In this document: in pieces, positions 26,929-36,686 of the stretch
Layout: each line of letters begins with the position of its first letter
Numbering within the stretch: position 1 is the first letter of the stretch
Assembly (NCBI RefSeq): GCF_056746865.1
Contig: NZ_CM163382.1
Direction: 5' to 3' (one strand)
Length of the DNA: 64,000 nt
Made by a program: the position numbers and the translations under genes
The notes under the pieces: generated by a model
The model's input: only the letters and a program-made list of their open reading frames with translations
Told to the model about the DNA's origin: nothing
Databases searched by the model: none

Positions 26929-27141
26929 ATAGTGGTTAATGGTCTGCGAAAAGGCAGCTGAATCTCTTCATCATGCAGAACGGAATTGCACACAACGGAC
27001 TGATACTTCTCTGGCGGATGAGAGAGGGGAAGCATTTATGTCCGGGAAAAACCACTTTATCTGAGCATGCTGTTTTGTACCTGCCGGTATCCACATTTGT
27101 GGGTACCGGCTTTTTTATTCACCCTCTGTAAGGAAAAGCTG

Positions 27142-30100
27142 ATGAAACGACATCTGAACACCAGCTACAGGCTGGTATGGAATCACATTACGGGCACCCT
27201 GGTGGTGGCCTCCGAACTGGCCCGCTCACGGGGAAAACGCGCTGGTGTGGCGGTTGCGCTGTCTCTTGCTGCTGTCACATCAGTCCCGGCACTGGCTGCT
27301 GACAAGGTTGTACAGGCGGGAGAAACCGTGAACGACGGAACACTGACAAATCATGACAACCAGATTGTCCTCGGTACGGCCAACGGAATGACCATCAGTA
27401 CCGGTCTGGAGTATGGGCCGGATAACGAGGCCAATACCGGCGGACAATGGATACAAAATGGCGGTATCGCCAACAACACTACTGTCACCGGTGGTGGTCT
27501 TCAGAGAGTGAATGCCGGAGGAAGCGTTTCAGACACGGTTATCAGTGCCGGAGGCGGACAGAGCCTTCAGGGGCAGGCAGTGAACACCACTCTGAACGGC
27601 GGTGAGCAGTGGGTACATGAAGGCGGGATTGCAACGGGTACCGTCATTAATGAGAAGGGCTGGCAGGCCATCAAATCCGGCGCAGTGGCAACCGACACGG
27701 TTGTGAATACCGGCGCGGAAGGGGGACCGGATGCGGAAAATGGTGATACCGGGCAGACCGTCTACGGAGATGCCGTACGCACCACCATCAATAAAAATGG
27801 TCGTCAGATTGTGGCTGCTGAAGGAACGGCAAATACCACTGTGGTTTATGCCGGCGGCGACCAGACTGTACATGGTCACGCACTGGATACCACGCTGAAT
27901 GGGGGGTACCAGTATGTGCACAACGGCGGTACGGCGTCTGGCACTGTTGTAAACAGTGACGGCTGGCAGATTGTCAAAAACGGGGGTGTGGCCGGGAATA
28001 CCACCGTTAATCAGAAGGGCAGACTGCAGGTGGACGCCGGTGGTACAGCCACGAATGTCACCCTGAAGCAGGGCGGCGCACTGGTTACCAGTACGGCTGC
28101 AACCGTTACCGGCATAAACCGCCTGGGAGCATTCTCTGTTGTGGAGGGTAAAGCTGATAATGTCGTACTGGAAAATGGCGGACGCCTGGATGTGCTGACC
28201 GGACACACAGCCACTAATACCCGCGTGGATGATGGCGGAACGCTGGATGTCCGCAACGGTGGCACCGCCACCACCGTATCCATGGGAAATGGCGGTGTAC
28301 TGCTGGCCGATTCCGGTGCCGCTGTCAGTGGTACCCGGAGCGACGGAAAGGCATTCAGTATCGGAGGCGGTCAGGCGGATGCCCTGATGCTGGAAAAAGG
28401 CAGTTCATTCACGCTGAACGCCGGTGATACGGCCACGGATACCACGGTAAATGGCGGACTGTTCACCGCCAGGGGCGGCACACTGGCGGGCACCACCACG
28501 CTGAATAACGGCGCCATACTTACCCTTTCCGGGAAGACGGTGAACAACGATACCCTGACCATCCGTGAAGGCGATGCACTCCTGCAGGGAGGCTCTCTCA
28601 CCGGTAACGGCAGCGTGGAAAAATCAGGAAGTGGCACACTCACTGTCAGCAACACCACACTCACCCAGAAAGCCGTCAACCTGAATGAAGGCACGCTGAC
28701 GCTGAACGACAGTACCGTCACCACGGATGTCATTGCTCAGCGCGGTACAGCCCTGAAGCTGACCGGCAGCACTGTGCTGAACGGTGCCATTGACCCCACG
28801 AATGTCACTCTCGCCTCTGGTGCCACCTGGAATATTCCCGATAACGCCACGGTGCAGTCGGTGGTGGATGACCTCAGCCATGCCGGACAGATTCATTTCA
28901 CCTCCACCCGCACAGGGAAGTTCGTACCGGCAACCCTGAAAGTGAAAAACCTGAACGGACAGAATGGCACCATCAGCCTGCGTGTACGCCCGGATATGGC
29001 ACAGAACAATGCTGACAGACTGGTCATTGACGGTGGCAGGGCAACCGGAAAAACCATCCTGAACCTGGTGAACGCCGGCAACAGTGCGTCGGGGCTGGCG
29101 ACCAGCGGTAAGGGTATTCAGGTGGTGGAAGCCATTAACGGTGCCACCACGGAGGAAGGGGCCTTTATCCAGGGGAATAAGCTGCAGGCCGGTGCCTTTA
29201 ACTACTCCCTCAACCGGGACAGTGATGAGAGCTGGTATCTGCGCAGTGAAAATGCTTATCGTGCTGAAGTCCCCCTGTATACATCCATGCTGACACAGGC
29301 AATGGACTATGACCGGATTCTGGCAGGCTCCCGCAGCCATCAGACCGGTGTAAACGGTGAAAATAACAGCGTCCGTCTCAGCATTCAGGGCGGTCATCTC
29401 GGTCACGATAACAACGGCGGTATTGCCCGTGGAGCCACGCCGGAAAGCAGCGGCAGCTATGGCTTCGTCCGTCTGGAGGGTGACCTGCTCAGAACAGAGG
29501 TTGCCGGTATGTCTCTGACGACAGGGGTGTATGGTGCCGCAGGCCATTCTTCCGTTGATGTTAAGGATGATGACGGTTCCCGCGCCGGCACGGTCCGGGA
29601 TGATGCCGGCAGCCTGGGCGGATACCTGAATCTGACACACACGTCCTCCGGCCTGTGGGCTGACATTGTGGCACAGGGAACCCGCCACAGCATGAAAGCG
29701 TCATCGGACAATAACGACTTCCGCGCCCGGGGCTGGGGCTGGCTGGGCTCACTGGAAACCGGTCTGCCCTTCAGTATCACTGACAACCTGATGCTGGAGC
29801 CACAACTGCAGTATACCTGGCAGGGACTTTCCCTGGATGACGGCCAGGATAACGCCGGTTATGTGAAGTTCGGGCATGGCAGTGCACAACATGTGCGTGC
29901 CGGTTTCCGTCTGGGCAGCCACAACGATATGAGCTTTGGTGAAGGCACCTCATCCCGTGACACCCTGCGCGACAGTGCAAAACACCGTGTGCGTGAACTG
30001 CCGGTGAACTGGTGGGTACAGCCTTCTGTTATCCGCACTTTCAGCTCCCGGGGTGACATGAGCATGGGTACAGCCGCAGCCGGCAGTAACATGACGTTCT

Positions 30101-30261
30101 CACCGTCCCGGAATGGCACGTCACTGGACCTGCAGGCCGGACTGGAAGCCCGTGTCCGGGAAAATATCACCCTGGGCGTTCAGGCCGGTTATGCCCACAG
30201 TGTCAGCGGCAGCAGCGCTGAAGGTTATAACGGTCAGGCCACGCTGAATGTGACTTTCTGA
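27142..30261 (+). CDS. flu: Antigen 43 self-associating autotransporter adhesin
   Basis: 1039 aa from [33 protein letters not shown] (extended signal peptide); repetitive passenger; C-terminal barrel ending ...NVTF. Confidence 0.9.
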
Positions 30262-30331
30262 TAATCAGGTCACTCTCCTTCAGGCCCCGGTCATCATGAC
30301 CGGGGCTTTTTACTTTCAGGGAGCAACAGAT

Positions 30332-30490
30332 ATGCCGGGTTGTACATCACGTTTATTGCCCGAAGGCCCTTTCTCACGCGAACAGGCTGTTGCCGTCAAA
30401 ACAGCTTACCGCAATGTGTTTACTGAAGATGACCAGGGAACATATTCCCGGCTGGTTATCCGTAATGCTGAAGGTCAGTTGCGCTGGTGA
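30332..30490 (+). CDS. DUF905-like small protein (possibly truncated)
   Basis: 52 aa ...[44 protein letters not shown]; family-like sequence continues past the TGA (CWNTA*). Confidence 0.45.
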
Positions 30491-30644
30491 TGCTGGAACA
30501 CAGCTTAATACTCAGCTCGCCAGTTAAGGGCTTCTCAGACAATAAACGTCATTCATTTCATCTGTCAGGCCGCGTCTTCTCCGGGAGACGTGGCTTTTTC
30601 ATTTATTACACCAGTAAATCGTAACCACCGATAAGGAGCAAATT

Positions 30645-31463
30645 ATGCGACTAGCCAGTCGTTTTGGTTATGCGAACCAGATACGCCGTGACCGTCCGCT
30701 GACACACGAAGAACTGATGCACTATGTTCCCAGTATTTTCGGTGAAGACCGGCATACTTCCCGCAGTAAACGATATGCGTACATTCCCACCATCACCGTA
30801 CTGGAAAGCCTGCAGCAGGAAGGTTTTCAGCCATTCTTCGCCTGCCAGACCCGCGTGCGCGACCCGGGCCGCCGGGGATACACAAAACACATGCTGCGTC
30901 TGCGGCGGGCCGGAGAGATAAACGGAGAACATGTCCCTGAAATTATTCTGCTCAACTCTCATGACGGTACCTCCAGCTACCAGATGCTGCCGGGTTACTT
31001 CAGATTCGTCTGCCAGAATGGCTGCGTCTGCGGTCAGTCTCTGGGGGAAGTGCGTGTTCCACACCGGGGAAATGTGGTGGAGAAAGTTATCGAAGGGGCT
31101 TACGAAGTGGTGGGGGTTTTTGACCGGATTGAGGAAAAGCGTGATGCCATGCAGTCGCTGGTCCTGCCGCCACCGGCACGCCAGGCGCTGGCACAGGCGG
31201 CACTGACTTACCGTTATGGTGACGAACATCAGCCGGTCACCACCGCTGACATTCTGACACCACGACGCAGGGAGGATTACGGTCAGGACCTGTGGAGCGC
31301 ATATCAGACCATCCAGGAGAATATGCTGAAAGGCGGAATTTCCGGCCGCAGTGCAAAAGGAAAACGTATCCACACCCGTGCCATTCACAACATCGACACC
31401 GATATTAAGCTCAACCGCGCATTGTGGGTAATGGCAGAAACGCTGCTGGAGAGCCTGCGCTGA
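30645..31463 (+). CDS. DUF932 protein (YfjQ/YafZ family)
   Basis: 272 aa, AAGGAG SD; CP4-type island family. Confidence 0.75.
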   Translation: MRLASRFGYANQIRRDRPLTHEELMHYVPSIFGEDRHTSRSKRYAYIPTITVLESLQQEGFQPFFACQTRVRDPGRRGYTKHMLRLRRAGEINGEHVPEIILLNSHDGTSSYQMLPGYFRFVCQNGCVCGQSLGEVRVPHRGNVVEKVIEGAYEVVGVFDRIEEKRDAMQSLVLPPPARQALAQAALTYRYGDEHQPVTTADILTPRRREDYGQDLWSAYQTIQENMLKGGISGRSAKGKRIHTRAIHNIDTDIKLNRALWVMAETLLESLR

Positions 31464-31804
31464 TGCAGCATGTCCCTGAAAGCGTGATTCAGGCACCAGA
31501 ATCACCCGACGCCCCGGAGGCGCTGCCGGGGTGTCGTTCCATTTCTGATGATGACCTGTGCGCCTGGTGTACCCGTCTGCTTTACCGTCCCGGAGAAATC
31601 AGTCTGTGCAGACTGAGTATACAGGCAATGGCATCTGGCCATCCGTCTGTGACCGGAACGGTTACGCGTACGGCTGTCCGGAATTTCAGCCGAATATCAT
31701 TCATCCCTGATATTACCGGGTCATCACGGTCAGTGATGAACGTGATGTTGCCAGCTCCCGACCTTTACTCCCTCTCATTTATTCACATTACAAGGATTTC
31801 ATAC

Positions 31805-32278
31805 ATGAAAACATTGTCTCAGAACACCACCTCTTCGGCCTGTGCACCGGAGACTGACCTGCAACAACTGGTAGCCACTCCCGTCCCTGATGAACGGCGC
31901 ATCAGCTTCTGGCCGCAGCACTTTGGCCTCATTCCACAGTGGGTGACCCTGGAGCCCCGTATCTTCGGCTGGATGGACCGTCTGTGTGAAGACTACTGCG
32001 GTGGTATCTGGAATCTGTACACCCTGAACAACGGCGGGGCATTTATGGCACCCGAACCGGATGACGATGATGACGAAACATGGGTACTGTTCAATGCCAT
32101 GAACGGTAACCGCGCTGAAATGAGCCCGGAAGCCGCCGGCATTGCTGCCTGTCTGATGACGTACAGTCATCATGCCTGTCGTACGGAGTGTTATGCCATG
32201 ACGGTCCATTATTACCGGCTGCGGGATTACGCCCTGCAGCATCCGGAATGCAGCGCCATTATGCGCATCATCGACTGA
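31805..32278 (+). CDS. Antirestriction protein (KlcA/ArdB-like, YfjX/YafX family)
   Basis: 157 aa from MKTLSQNTTSS...; acidic DDDDDE patch; upstream in-frame extension to 31463 has no stop. Confidence 0.7.
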   Translation: MKTLSQNTTSSACAPETDLQQLVATPVPDERRISFWPQHFGLIPQWVTLEPRIFGWMDRLCEDYCGGIWNLYTLNNGGAFMAPEPDDDDDETWVLFNAMNGNRAEMSPEAAGIAACLMTYSHHACRTECYAMTVHYYRLRDYALQHPECSAIMRIID

Positions 32279-32293
32279 ATGGAGAGAAGTACA

Positions 32294-32770
32294 ATGCAAC
32301 AGCTTTCCTTTCTGCCCGGAGAGATGACGCCCGGCGAGCGCAGCCTCATTCAACGGGCCCTGAAAACCCTGGACCGCCATCTTCATGAACCCGGCGTGGC
32401 CTTCACCTCCACCCGTGCGGCACGAGAATGGCTGATTCTGAACATGGCGGGACTGGAGCGTGAAGAGTTCCGGGTGCTGTATCTGAACAACCAGAATCAG
32501 CTGATTGCCGGTGAAACCCTCTTCACCGGCACCATCAACCGCACGGAAGTCCATCCCCGGGAAGTGATTAAACGCGCCCTGTATCACAATGCCGCTGCTG
32601 TGGTGCTGGCACACAATCACCCGTCCGGTGAAGTCACACCCAGCAAGGCAGACCGCCTTATCACGGAACGTCTGGTACAGGCACTGGGCCTGGTGGATAT
32701 CCGGGTGCCGGACCATCTGATAGTCGGTGGCAGCCAGGTTTTCTCCTTTGCCGAATATGGTCTGCTTTAA
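32294..32770 (+). CDS. RadC-like JAB-domain protein (YeeS/YkfG/YfjY family)
   Basis: JAMM motif HNHPSGxxxPSxxD; start may be 32279. Confidence 0.8.
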   Translation: MQQLSFLPGEMTPGERSLIQRALKTLDRHLHEPGVAFTSTRAAREWLILNMAGLEREEFRVLYLNNQNQLIAGETLFTGTINRTEVHPREVIKRALYHNAAAVVLAHNHPSGEVTPSKADRLITERLVQALGLVDIRVPDHLIVGGSQVFSFAEYGLL

Positions 32771-33054: not shown

Positions 33055-33216
33055 TGTTCCGTCACCCGGAAAACGAGTACGACTGGCAGAGCTCAGACGC
33101 CGCTGTGGATGAGGTCCTGCTCATCAACGAATACACCTTTACCGAAGCCGGTCTGCGCGCCGGCTGACCCGTCATCGTTAAACTATCATTCACCGATTTT
33201 CTGTGAGGATTTTATC

Positions 33217-33585
33217 GTGTCAGACACACTTTCCGGGACAACGCATCCCGATGACAATGACGACCATCCCTGGTGGGGACTACCCTGCACAGTGACGCCC
33301 TGTTTCGGCGCCCGTCTGGTGCAGGAGGGTAACCGGTTGCATTACCTTGCCGACCGTGCCGGTATCAGAGGCCGGTTCAGAGATGCGGATGCGTACCCTC
33401 TGGACCAGGCCTTTCCGCTGCTGATGAAACAACTGAAATTAATGCTCACCAGTGGTGAACTGAATCCCCGCCATCAGCATACCGTGACACTGTATGCGAA
33501 GGGGCTGACCTGTGAAGCCGACACCCTCGGCTCCTGTGGTTACGTTTATCTGGCTGTTTATCCGACACCTGAAACGAAAAAGTAA
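33217..33585 (+). CDS. cbeA: CbeA/YeeU-family antitoxin
   Basis: 122 aa from GTG (SDTLSGTTHPDDNDDHPWWGLPCTVTPCFGARLVQEG...); GAGGA SD. Confidence 0.75.
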   Translation: MSDTLSGTTHPDDNDDHPWWGLPCTVTPCFGARLVQEGNRLHYLADRAGIRGRFRDADAYPLDQAFPLLMKQLKLMLTSGELNPRHQHTVTLYAKGLTCEADTLGSCGYVYLAVYPTPETKK

Positions 33586-33674: not shown

Positions 33675-33733
33675 ATGAAAACATTACCCGACACGCATGT
33701 ACGGGAGGTATCGTGCTGCCCGTCTCCAGTCAC
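33675..33733 (+). pseudogene. cbtA: cbtA/yeeV-family toxin gene, 5' fragment, disrupted by IS21-family insertion
   Basis: MKTLPDTHVREVSCCPSPVT then the IS end; the reading frame resumes after the IS at 36371 (..TIWQTLLTRLLDQH) and then diverges from the family. Confidence 0.7.
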
Positions 33734-33832
33734 TGCGTATTCCGCTCTATTCGATCACGGATTGGCATCGAAGTCCGATCAGCGATTCGCATCCATTCGA
33801 TCAACCGGGAACTTAACTTTTTCTACCGCTTT

Positions 33833-34588
33833 TTAACGCGTTTTTTCGCTGCTTTCCACTACCGGGGGATTTTTCCTCAGTGACTCTCCCTGAAGGACCA
33901 CCCGGTGTGAGTTATGTACCAGTCTGTCCAGGATGGCATCTGCTGTTGTTGGGTTCTCCATCAGACCATGCCATTTATCTACCGGGAACTGGCTTACCAC
34001 TATCGTGCTGCTTTGTCCGTAACGATCCTCTATGAGCTCCAGAAGGTCATTACACTGGGCGTTACTTAACTGTTCCAGCCCCAGATCGTCCAGGATTAGA
34101 ACCTGTATTTTTTGCAACTGTTTCAGATATTTCAGCCAGCTGCCATCAACACGTCCCTGAGCCAGTTGTTCCAGTAATCGCCCGGTTCTACAGTACCGGA
34201 CGCTGTGTTTCTGTCGACATGCCTGTTCGCCCAGCGCATTGGCTATCCAGCTCTTGCCACATCCTGTCGGACCGGTTATCAGCAGGTTTTTCCTGTGGGT
34301 TATGTAGTGGCCGTTCAGCAGTTCTCTCATCTGTTCAGCCCGCAGACCTCTTGAGGCCGGATAGCGCAGCCCTTCCGGTGTTGCCTGGTATTTCAGGCCG
34401 GCATTTTTTCTCAACCGTGCCACACGGCTGTTTTCCCTGCTCAGAAGCTCGTCATCAACCAGCAGCGTCAGCCTTTCCTCGAACGACAGTTCGTCGTAGG
34501 TCTGAGGCGTTTCCCGCTGCCGTATCAGGCTCCCGGCCATCGCCGGGAGTTTCAGTTGGGTCAGTTTGTTTAACAGGTTATCACTCAT
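33833..34588 (-). CDS. istB: IS21-family helper ATPase IstB
   Basis: 251 aa from MSDNLLNKLTQLKLP...; Walker A GPTGCGKS. Confidence 0.85.
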   Translation of the reverse strand: MSDNLLNKLTQLKLPAMAGSLIRQRETPQTYDELSFEERLTLLVDDELLSRENSRVARLRKNAGLKYQATPEGLRYPASRGLRAEQMRELLNGHYITHRKNLLITGPTGCGKSWIANALGEQACRQKHSVRYCRTGRLLEQLAQGRVDGSWLKYLKQLQKIQVLILDDLGLEQLSNAQCNDLLELIEDRYGQSSTIVVSQFPVDKWHGLMENPTTADAILDRLVHNSHRVVLQGESLRKNPPVVESSEKTR

Positions 34589-34604
34589 ACTGTTGTTCCT
34601 TCTG

Positions 34605-36140
34605 TCAGTGGTAGTAGCCCGGACCACGCAGGTTTTCATGCTCTGAAGCATATGCCGGATGTTGTTCGCCCTGGCGGGATAATGGAAGCTCCAGGTTCTC
34701 CCGATGGTGACGCAGCAGATTGTCGATAAAGCGTCTGTCAGGGGCGTTATAGTGCAGGGCAACGTAACAGGCCTTTTCCAGCCGTTCCGGGCCGTATTTT
34801 TTCTGAAGTGCCAGCAGCCCCAGAACTGCACGATAAGCCAGTTCCGGATGGGGTTTTGCCTTCAGCATGGATTCAACCACCCGGCCTGTGGACGGGCCCG
34901 TACGTTTTCCCTGCTCGATCAGGCGTTCCGGTGTCCATGTCCCGTGCTGCCGGTGGCGCTCTGGCATGTGAAGCGGATTGGTTGTGTGTTTATATTCATG
35001 TGTGCTGCGCGGATGTTGCGCCACACACTGCCCCTTGTGCCAGAGCTGTACCACCGACTGCCCCGCCTTCAGTGACAGACGCTGACCGACCAGTTCGTGT
35101 GGAACGGAGTACCAGTGACGGGCATATTCAACGTGGTAGTCAGGGCCAACCTTCACAGCTTTGTATTCCGTGTATTCATAAGGTGCCAGAGGCAGCGGAG
35201 AGAGTGCTGGCGCATCCAGTATGCGGAAGCGTTCTGCACGGGTTTGATTGCCGTACCCCTTCATTGGCCGGTTATTCATGTCTGTCAGTAACTCCCTAAG
35301 GCGCGCATTCAGCGCCCTGAGCGTGTGGAAGGTTTCATTACGGATGCGGGCAAGAAGCCATCGTTCGACGATGAGGACGCCGTTTTCTGCTTTTGGTTTA
35401 TCTTTAGGTTTGCGTGGTCGGGCCGGGATGATAACCGTGCCATAGTGCTCAGCCAGTGCCTGATAACTGTCGTTGATGACAGGCTCATATCGATCGGCCT
35501 TTTTCACTGCGCTTCTGAGGTTATCGGGGATGAGCAGCTTCGGTACGCCGCCCAGGAAGGTCAGGCAACGGCTGTGGGCATTTAACCATGACATCATGTC
35601 CTGACCTTCGCACGCTTCAACGTAGGTATAGTTGGACGCCCCCATTACGGCCACGAAGATTGCCACGCGGCGTATCTCACCGGTGTCCGGATTAATAACA
35701 GGAACCGTAGGACCACAGAAGTCGATAAAAAGCTTTTCGCCGGCACGATGCTCCTGGCGCATGGAGAGACGTCGCGTTTTTTTCCACTCCCGGTAGCAAC
35801 GGCAGAAGTGCGAGTATCCCATCGCTTTGTTACCCGCCTGTGCCTTGTATTCCATCCACAACAGTTGCCGCGTCACACCTGGTTTTCTCATTTCCGTATC
35901 GAGGTACAACATGTCAGGCATTACAAGCTCTGATGCAAAGGTGTCTTTGGGCGGAAAAATGAGTTTCTCCAGCGTGTCATGGGATATATCAGCAGGTAAT
36001 GGCCATGACAGAGAAGAGGCTTTGAAGCGGGCAAGAACCTCAAAAACGGTTGAGGCGCTGATGTGTAACGTCAGTCCGATACAACGGTTAGTCAGCTTCT
36101 TGTCGAACTTGAGCTGAAGAATCTTAAAACAGGTTTCCAT
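34605..36140 (-). CDS. istA: IS21-family transposase IstA
   Basis: 511 aa from METCFKILQLKF...; HTH plus DDE core; AGGAG SD. Confidence 0.85.
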   Translation of the reverse strand: METCFKILQLKFDKKLTNRCIGLTLHISASTVFEVLARFKASSLSWPLPADISHDTLEKLIFPPKDTFASELVMPDMLYLDTEMRKPGVTRQLLWMEYKAQAGNKAMGYSHFCRCYREWKKTRRLSMRQEHRAGEKLFIDFCGPTVPVINPDTGEIRRVAIFVAVMGASNYTYVEACEGQDMMSWLNAHSRCLTFLGGVPKLLIPDNLRSAVKKADRYEPVINDSYQALAEHYGTVIIPARPRKPKDKPKAENGVLIVERWLLARIRNETFHTLRALNARLRELLTDMNNRPMKGYGNQTRAERFRILDAPALSPLPLAPYEYTEYKAVKVGPDYHVEYARHWYSVPHELVGQRLSLKAGQSVVQLWHKGQCVAQHPRSTHEYKHTTNPLHMPERHRQHGTWTPERLIEQGKRTGPSTGRVVESMLKAKPHPELAYRAVLGLLALQKKYGPERLEKACYVALHYNAPDRRFIDNLLRHHRENLELPLSRQGEQHPAYASEHENLRGPGYYH

Positions 36141-36686
36141 AGTGCTCCTGGATTTTCTCTTTCTGGACATTGACGTCTCCACTGGTTTAAACACGGCAAT
36201 GGAGACTGTGGTGAAAAGAGTTAATTCCCGGAGTGACTGGCAGGATGCCAATCAATGATCGGAAGCATGCCAAATCGTGATCGATTGTGATGCCAAACTG
36301 TGATCGGAGATGGATGCCAAATCATGATCGATTCGAATGCCAAACTGCGATCGATTCAGATGCCATTTTGCAGTCACCATCTGGCAGACACTGCTCACCC
36401 GGTTACTGGACCAGCATTCCCTGATTTCCTCATCGATATCGAATAAGCACTCGTCGCAGAATTCTTTATCGAGTGAGAGCCTCTGTTCAAGGACGCTTCT
36501 TTTTTTTGTTGCAACGTGCACATCCCTTCATCTTTCCGCGCCTTTGTGACCTCGTGATTTGGGGTACATGGAAAATGGGCGTAGCAAGCCTCAGCTAGAT
36601 AACTAACCGTAATAAAAGGGCTTTTCTGCGAGCAATGTAAGAGAAGGATAACTAGGCAGGTTGCAAGAAAGATAATCGTTTTGATA

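Follow-up and report, generated by a model that had tools for sequence, protein, structure and literature searches.

A frame running from a DUF932 gene into an antirestriction gene is very probably a frameshifted allele of a conserved small gene

In the window, that is the whole stretch of 64,000 nucleotides that was analysed (contig NZ_CM163382.1), a reading frame leaves the end of a DUF932 gene and continues without a stop into the antirestriction gene that follows. Is this a longer form of the antirestriction protein, a small gene of its own, or a frame that merely happens to lack stops? A sequence-only reading of the locus had put forward these three possibilities, the second with translational coupling to DUF932 and the third as chance in GC-rich DNA. 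Its description of the frame was confirmed throughout: the ATG at 31463 overlaps the DUF932 stop, the A of TGA being the A of ATG (ctgcgcTGATGcag, with the shared TGATG at 31461-31465), no stop occurs over 114 codons, and MKTLSQ..., with which the antirestriction ORF begins, is codon 115 (31805). Translation of 31463-32278 gave 271 codons and a stop (32276-32278) with no internal stop; the other two frames of 31463-31804 hold 6 and 5 stops.

Under a first-order Markov model of the interval, a stop-free run of 114 codons has a p of about 0.02, a value that is misleading because the first 52 codons are genuine coding sequence (see below). With the same type of model, p was about 0.17 for the last 62 of the 114 codons, about 0.42 for the 35 shifted codons and about 0.35 for the 31-codon spacer, where the intact allele has no stop either; nothing beyond chance is thus needed for the shifted segment and the spacer. 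Stop-free runs of at least 114 codons occur 109 times in the window, all frames counted. Pure chance, meaning a long stop-free run in non-coding DNA, nevertheless accounts for the second half of the frame only: codons 1-52 belong to a conserved family with hundreds of homologues, a dN/dS well below 1 and a maintained gene order, and for these codons the homologue set refutes it. We hold it to be hardly probable at all as an explanation of the whole frame, its share being the lack of stops in the shifted segment and in the spacer. Nor did the appeal to base composition hold, since the interval has 53% GC and is not especially GC-rich.

Two insertions relative to intact E. coli alleles

A 521-bp query covering the junction matched 2,934 records, in 2,931 of the 5,426 complete E. 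coli genomes, often with multiple matches in one genome. One of these loci (FDAARGOS_497, L001) is 100% identical to the window over the query, and PGAP annotated there the DUF932 gene and the 157-aa antirestriction gene with nothing between them. The EC9682 and SCPM-O-B-9504 loci, 3 bases shorter than the window at this site, have an annotated CDS for an 81-aa "hypothetical protein" (WP_001164966.1 or WP_000680587.1), which in the intact loci L002 and L003 extends from the same TGATG to a TGA. The window copy shares the locus and the TGATG start with these two CDSs but, unlike them, carries insertions of +2 and +1, so that there is no 81-aa product and the ORF continues into the next gene. 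The features of the locus are collected in Table 1.

Table 1. Features of the interval from the DUF932 gene to the RadC-like gene (window positions)
Feature	Position	Strand	Evidence or remark
DUF932 gene, 272 aa	30645..31463	+	PF06067, E=1e-52; annotated by PGAP in the matching locus L001
GGAGAG, Shine-Dalgarno-like, inside the DUF932 3' end	31448..31453	+	9-11 nt before ATG 31463
Small Cys4 gene, 5' part, codons 1-52, native frame	31463..31618	+	tblastn and family alignments A3 and A4
TATA, tandem TA duplication, +2 frameshift	31618..31621	+	Single TA in intact alleles
Small Cys4 gene, 3' part, codons 53-81 and native TGA (31708-31710)	31621..31710	+	Frame differs from that of the 5' part; the stop at 31708 is in frame 2
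Extra A, +1	31723	+	13 nt past the native stop of the small gene
TGATGA double stop	31734..31739	+	Terminates the 90-aa ORF in +2-only alleles (e.g. Nissle 1917)
AAGGA, putative Shine-Dalgarno of the antirestriction gene	31792..31796	+	8 nt before ATG 31805
Antirestriction gene, 157 aa, ArdB/KlcA-type, PF03230	31805..32278	+	WP_000855064.1 annotated in L001
RadC-like JAB-domain gene, next in the conserved module	32294..32770	+	PF04002, E=4e-44; PGAP coordinates from L001

As indicated by the alignment, the first insertion duplicates a TA (compare GAGTACAGG in the intact allele with GAGTATACAGG in the window, 31618-31621) and the second adds an A (compare GGGTCTCACGG with GGGTCATCACGG, 31723). 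When the 81-aa protein was used in tblastn, its residues 1-52 fell on 31463-31618 with 98% identity and its residues 53-81 on 31621-31707 with 100% identity, in another frame. Over 390 nt, only the two indels and one SNP separate the intact, the +2-only (Nissle 1917) and the window allele from one another. The extra A returns the shifted frame to the phase of the antirestriction ATG and puts the TGATGA double stop out of frame.

What remains of the small gene in its native frame is its N-terminal block, R-S-I-S-D-D-D-L-C-x-x-C...Y-R-P-G-E-x-S-x-C: codons 25-49 of the window read RSISDDDLCAWCTRLLYRPGEISLC, which fits the invariant columns of A3 and A4, and the 5' part holds R25, S28, DDD29-31, C33, C36, YRP41-43, E45 and C49. 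The C-terminal block, W-P...D-x-x-G-Y...C followed by a stop after 79-88 codons, was not found in the native frame of the window, where the native TGA is bypassed; the 3' part does encode the conserved W58, P59, D63, G66, Y67, C71 and P72, in its own frame. Since W58, P59, Y67 and C71 are out of frame, the window encodes a disrupted copy, and as far as its sequence can be read the small gene is functionally lost in this copy of the island.

Could an intact, DUF932-coupled small gene still function here? Its start context is undamaged, and so are its first 52 codons, which share 98% identity with a functional-looking allele; the family as a whole is under purifying selection. However, the displacement of W58, P59, D63, G66, Y67, C71, P72 and the native stop refutes this at the sequence level for the window copy, and for the whole protein to be made, ribosomes would have to shift by -1/+2 near CUG-AGU-AUA-CAG, which none of the relatives requires; we regard a functional gene in the window as very unlikely. 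Programmed ribosomal frameshifting was considered and rejected: direct reading of the sequence at the shift point, CTGAGTATACAGG, revealed no slippery X-XXY-YYZ heptamer, and the protein is encoded in a single frame in other genera and in at least 788 E. coli records.

A small gene with four invariant cysteines

A search of 5.8 billion proteins returned 184 homologues of the small protein, among them full-length proteins (79-88 aa, 53-65% identity) from Enterobacter, Citrobacter, Klebsiella, Salmonella, Yersinia and Mixta. A profile search extended the set to 642 proteins and added Serratia, Raoultella, Yokenella and Dryocola, so that the gene occurs in at least ten enterobacterial genera; its enterobacterial form is carried by about 1,170 plasmids, 1,128 of them conjugative. 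All 642 proteins are named "hypothetical" or, in UniRef, "Antirestriction protein". The latter name, given to an unrelated 81-aa protein, looks like spill-over from fused calls.

The position of the gene is conserved as well. The small gene lies between DUF932 and an antirestriction-RadC-DUF987-CbeA-CbtA-DUF5983 series in Yersinia, Mixta, Salmonella and Klebsiella and on a conjugative plasmid of type IncFIB/IncHI1B. Its start overlaps the DUF932 stop by one base (TGATG or TAATG) in all seven intact copies examined (L002, L003, L005-L008 and L015; two from E. coli, four from other genera and one from a plasmid), and the same overlap is present in the window; this overlap makes translational coupling to DUF932 probable. 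The GGAGAG upstream, which is invariant in the four-sequence alignment A1, may act as the Shine-Dalgarno motif for this start. Between genera, pS ranged from 0.5 to 0.9 (saturated) and pN from 0.1 to 0.3, giving a dN/dS of 0.06-0.3 where it could be computed. The two intact E. coli alleles L002 and L003 gave 0.57-0.75 on few changes, a value compatible with relaxed constraint in chromosomal islands. To judge from these comparisons, a separate small gene, probably coupled to DUF932, existed in the ancestral locus. This part of the sequence-only reading stands for the ancestor, the family being conserved and probably coupled, but not for the window, where the gene is frameshifted after codon 52.

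Alignment of 61 close and 98 diverse sequences left D29, D30, D31, C33, C36, Y41, S47, C49 and C71 invariant and S28, P43, G44, W58, P59 and Y67 nearly so. The 98-sequence alignment is the deeper one and includes remote homologues, in which the four cysteines and DDD remain invariant. The core pattern is [S/K]-[S/L]-I-S-D-D-D-L-C-x2-C-x4-Y-x-P-G-x2-S-x-C-x(3-12)-W-P-x3-D-x-D-G-Y-x3-C. An exhaustive profile search of 1.84 billion cluster representatives (50% identity clusters) retained 320 at E<=1e-3. The domain occurs as a standalone protein of 55-90 aa, in tandem within one protein (P0190) and at either end of proteins of 150-294 aa devoid of Pfam domains, and remote members are found on metagenomic contigs, within long series of tiny, unannotated genes that all lie on one strand.

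Like small Cys4 zinc-ribbon and zinc-knuckle proteins, the small protein combines a CxxC pair with two distal invariant cysteines. The four candidate metal ligands (C33, C36, C49 and C71) are invariant in the 98 diverse sequences, and the protein, with these cysteines and its S-DDD, is presumably a zinc-binding module. No likeness to a solved zinc-ribbon or zinc-knuckle structure was found. A profile search of the PDB by sequence gave only noise (E>=0.05). A first AlphaFold2 model, built on the shallow 61-sequence alignment, was discarded (pLDDT 53); on the trimmed 98-sequence alignment the pLDDT reached 87.7, and the predicted domain comprises about 55 residues, mainly in short beta-strands. 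The small protein matched nothing in Pfam, NCBIfam, PHROGs or PADLOC, nor did ten multi-domain remote homologues match Pfam. Tblastn with the E. coli protein and a compact remote member gave no match in 50,697 phage genomes, PHROG scans of the genes adjoining remote homologues found nothing, and no paper in the literature contains the motif ISDDDLC. One remote multi-domain homologue (P0250) carries phrog_10759, a phage family domain of unknown function.

What might such a protein do? A DUF932 gene, in that paper named yfjQ, was differentially expressed in Nissle 1917, as verified by qPCR alongside fluC (PMC11056357); papers dealing with DUF932 give no function for it. We tentatively suggest, as an idea more doubtful than probable, that the "SISDDD" Cys4 protein (81-88 aa) represents an undescribed and widespread domain family of mobile elements and that, in islands of enterobacteria and on conjugative plasmids, it would assist or regulate the DUF932 / ArdB-type antirestriction module in a zinc-dependent way, for instance as an anti-defence or establishment factor. 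In a weaker variant of this idea, the 271-aa chimera, which about a quarter of E. coli genomes could encode, would be made and would alter antirestriction activity.

The junction with the antirestriction gene and its alleles

We then looked at whether the junction is a conserved design. From the small-gene ATG to the antirestriction ATG the distance is 392 nt in Yersinia (phase 2), 271 in Mixta (phase 1), 326 in Salmonella (phase 2), 357 in Klebsiella (phase 0), 271 on the plasmid (phase 1) and 339 in E. coli L002 (phase 0), which shows that the relative phase of the two genes differs between genera. The antirestriction homologues of Yersinia, Mixta, Salmonella, Klebsiella and the plasmid have 143-164 aa and their own ATG. 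Among the 304 proteins examined, every one with both domains holds only profile positions 1-55 of the small protein; all of these are frameshift or deletion alleles, and an intact Cys4 domain joined to PF03230 was found in none. Window 31805-32275 scores 127.5 bits with PF03230, for which the cutoff is 25, over the full profile (positions 1-92 of 92), and the domain begins at residue 176 of the fused ORF, so that the 114-codon extension was not found to be part of the family domain.

Could the 271-aa ORF encode a true antirestriction protein with a selected N-terminal extension, newly fused and using the DUF932-coupled start? This view can draw on the open frame, on a start codon that retains the conserved coupling context, on the fused allele being the most frequent in E. 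coli (see below) and on records in which long forms are annotated "antirestriction protein" or "klcA" (e.g. ANK05128.1; 271 aa on 137 contigs, 284 aa on 10). However, such a protein would begin with a truncated domain in which one of the four invariant cysteines is missing; next would come 36 out-of-frame residues and then 26 residues from the spacer, the downstream Shine-Dalgarno sequence included. No relative fuses an intact domain, the phase varies, homologues everywhere else stay at 143-164 aa, and strains with intact, +2-only and fused alleles all have the same 157-aa form, which is present on at least 998 contigs. We saw no sign that the chimera is a selected product. A selected extension is therefore very unlikely in our opinion, and the proposal of an extended antirestriction protein was not borne out: this frame contains a stop in intact relatives, the antirestriction homologues of other genera have their own start, and the middle of the extension is out-of-frame sequence. 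Of the two features of homologous islands that the sequence-only reading had named as counter-evidence, stops in this frame and an extension without conservation, the stop is indeed there, but the first 52 codons are conserved, as part of another gene.

How common is each allele? In complete E. coli genomes, exact 65-bp matches, with only the best place of each record counted, gave 1,516 records with the TA duplication against 788 without it, and 1,387 with the extra A against 958 without it. These counts make the fused allele the commonest form in complete E. coli genomes; the double-indel allele has about 1,400 exact matches, which is about a quarter of these genomes. A 160-bp core was found at >=99% identity, a level that the +2-only allele reaches too, in 1,548 complete E. 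coli records, and it was exact in every top match among the matches listed. The fused allele occurs in ST131, in O111:H2, in animal isolates and in Shigella. The +2-only allele exists in DNA, for instance in Nissle 1917, with a 90-aa ORF; the translation of L016 ends ...ITGSHGQ followed by two stops, and the proteins P0042, P0050 and P0024 end like this ORF. The +1-only allele, in which the small gene is intact, was found in ETEC4088, AVS0453 and NCTC9022. All four combinations of the indels exist, so they do not tell which insertion came first. Recombination or gene conversion between island copies, of which a genome has up to six, is likely, and selection is one possible cause of the commonness of the fused allele, with clonal expansion, multiple island copies and gene conversion equally possible.

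This recurrence also bears on the quality of the sequence. Single-base and dinucleotide indels are typical of long reads, and both insertions could thus be sequencing or assembly errors. In contrast to what such errors would give, the sites are not long homopolymers, the 65-bp sequences recur exactly in 1,516 and 1,387 complete-genome records, which many different laboratories and platforms produced, and the 160-bp core is exact in many genomes; the recurrence refutes an error, the probability of which we consider practically nil.

The small gene has been damaged independently in other ways too. One lineage (L004) has a 76-bp deletion in it between 7-bp direct repeats CCCGGAG (equivalent to window positions 31513-31588), and other genera show different frameshifts and a deletion-fusion of the small gene (P0166, P0167 and P0168). 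In the island of the window, a DUF905 gene is frameshifted as well, and cbtA is truncated by an IS.

Taken together, these data make it very probable that the open frame goes back to a real small gene, of which it is a derived allele with a shifted frame, accidentally joined to the antirestriction gene. The ancestral CP4-type island would have had the order DUF932, small gene (81-88 aa), antirestriction, RadC, DUF987 and CbeA/CbtA, translation of the small gene probably being coupled to DUF932 by termination-reinitiation. The TA duplication at codon 53 would then have shifted the frame by +2, so that the conserved C-terminal half, the fourth cysteine and the native TGA are read out of frame, and the extra A (+1) would have removed the TGATGA that ends the +2-only allele and returned the frame to its starting phase. 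By chance, this phase would match the antirestriction ATG in the E. coli lineage, and the 31-codon spacer offers no stop. Two products may be expected. The first is the normal 157-aa antirestriction protein: its own AAGGA, a candidate Shine-Dalgarno sequence that is translated within the fused frame in the window, is kept and is the same in intact, +2-only and window alleles, from which we infer that the protein is still made as usual from its own AAGGA-ATG. The second, a possible one, would be a 271-aa chimera from ribosomes reinitiating at 31463, made up of 52 aa of the truncated Cys domain, 36 out-of-frame aa, 26 aa of translated spacer and the whole antirestriction protein.

Annotation of the locus and comparison with known systems

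The sequence feature is thus real and its explanation ordinary: it is a frameshifted allele of an annotated, uncharacterised small gene. The main practical value of the analysis lies in the correction of the annotation. The long ORF should not be named a 271- or 284-aa antirestriction protein, and the locus is correctly described as a small gene with a shifted frame, after which comes an ordinary 157-aa antirestriction gene. As a by-product and a modest side lead, the analysis yielded a DUF932-coupled Cys4 domain family that has neither a family model nor a structural relative. The interval between DUF932 and the antirestriction gene of CP4-type islands holds this conserved, probably translationally coupled and uncharacterised gene, which is repeatedly lost in chromosomal copies and kept on many conjugative plasmids; it is a concrete candidate within the poorly understood DUF932 / ArdB / RadC / CbtA-CbeA module, for which the intact, +2-only, +1-only and fused alleles provide a natural allelic series.

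Compared with ArdB/KlcA-type proteins (PF03230; YafX and YfjX = LfgA in K-12), window 31805-32278 is a full-length member. Members of this family have about 140-165 aa, and the 114-codon extension lies outside the family domain. The sequence-only reading had advised a comparison with the yafX and yfjX loci. The RadC-like downstream partner is common to the window and to the K-12 pairs yafX-ykfG and yfjX-yfjY, the latter now named lfgA-lfgB, with LfgB described (PMC10846083). In contrast to the window, CP4-6 and CP4-57 of K-12 are devoid of the small gene, and DUF932 does not adjoin the antirestriction gene there. The window allele itself resembles the gene-fusion pseudogenes that arise from compensating frameshifts in cryptic prophages and islands: here, too, two indels summing to +3 produce a chimeric ORF. 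It differs from other pseudogenes of this kind in being unusually widespread and in being mis-annotated as a long antirestriction protein.

Allelic forms and names of the small gene

All four combinations of the TA duplication and the extra A that together fuse the start of the small gene to the antirestriction frame were present in E. coli complete genomes. The DUF932-antirestriction interval was itself found in up to six copies in single genomes, Nissle 1917 carrying it in six places. Because every indel combination exists and a genome can hold this many copies, the data suggest that paralogous CP4-type islands have exchanged sequence by gene conversion or recombination.

The small gene of one E. 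coli lineage (CFIAFB20190157, locus L004) carries an internal deletion of 76 bp, flanked precisely by a pair of 7-bp direct repeats, CCCGGAG. Instead of the small gene, PGAP calls a 46-aa antisense 'hypothetical protein' in CFIAFB20190157, and this call is probably spurious. The left end of the deletion is overlapped by a GC-rich hairpin of 11 pairs (CGACGCCCCGG...CCGGGGTGTCG) in the 5' part of the small gene; this hairpin was flagged as terminator-like, has a weak T-tract and lies in coding sequence.

The 81-aa Cys4 protein is called 'Antirestriction protein' by UniRef clusters (for example A0A066T9G9_ECOLX) and lacks the PF03230 domain. The fused ORF, of 271 or 284 aa, appears in some GenBank records as 'antirestriction protein', 'klcA' or even 'restriction endonuclease', and the fused allele is the probable source of the name that spilled over onto the 81-aa protein.

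Transcription signals and damaged genes of the island

The region upstream of DUF932 gave no convincing promoter in a simple scan. Two hairpins with T-tracts, both strong and terminator-like, separate Ag43 from DUF932, which suggests that transcription of the DUF932-small-antirestriction module is not mere read-through from agn43.

The DUF905 gene is a fragment, and its equivalent in the matching locus of FDAARGOS_497 (L001) is labelled 'frameshifted' by PGAP. In the type IV toxin-antitoxin pair of the island, only the first ~28 residues of the CbtA toxin are left, matching positions 1-28 of the PF06755 profile, and the gene is interrupted by an IS21-family element; the CbeA antitoxin gene is intact, with its domain from residue 54 onward. 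A single island copy thus holds three damaged genes: DUF905, the small gene and cbtA.

Coordinates of the features (in the window unless a locus is named)
Feature	Position	Strand
Ag43	27067-30261
Terminator-like hairpin	30282-30308
DUF905 gene fragment, between Ag43 and DUF932	30296-30490
Terminator-like hairpin	30567-30596
Hairpin in small gene	31507-31536
Region of the L004 deletion	31513-31595 (L004, 1634 region)
CbeA antitoxin gene	33109-33585
CbtA toxin gene remnant	33675-33836
IS21-family element	33833-36251	minus
istB	33833-34831	minus
istA	34605-36251	minus
Remote Cys4 homologue, locus L011	4001-4198
CP4-type module, locus L015	1-12234

Relatives of the Cys4 domain and of the module

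Among the remote homologues, listed with the L011 site, P0190 (232 aa) contains two Cys4 domains in tandem and P0250 (213 aa) joins one to a phage family domain of unknown function, phrog_10759 (E=3e-25). A third, P0176, ends a run of at least 15 tiny same-strand genes, among which no family hits were obtained.

The entire CP4-type module is present on the Klebsiella IncFIB/IncHI1B plasmid p1-7011.62-NDM1 (locus L015), a 342-kb conjugative NDM-1 plasmid. Its order is AlpA, inovirus Gp2-family protein, WYL, DUF4234, DUF905, DUF932, small gene, antirestriction, RadC, DUF987, YeeU, CbtA, DUF5983 and DUF957, with an additional 72-aa hypothetical gene between the antirestriction and radC genes.
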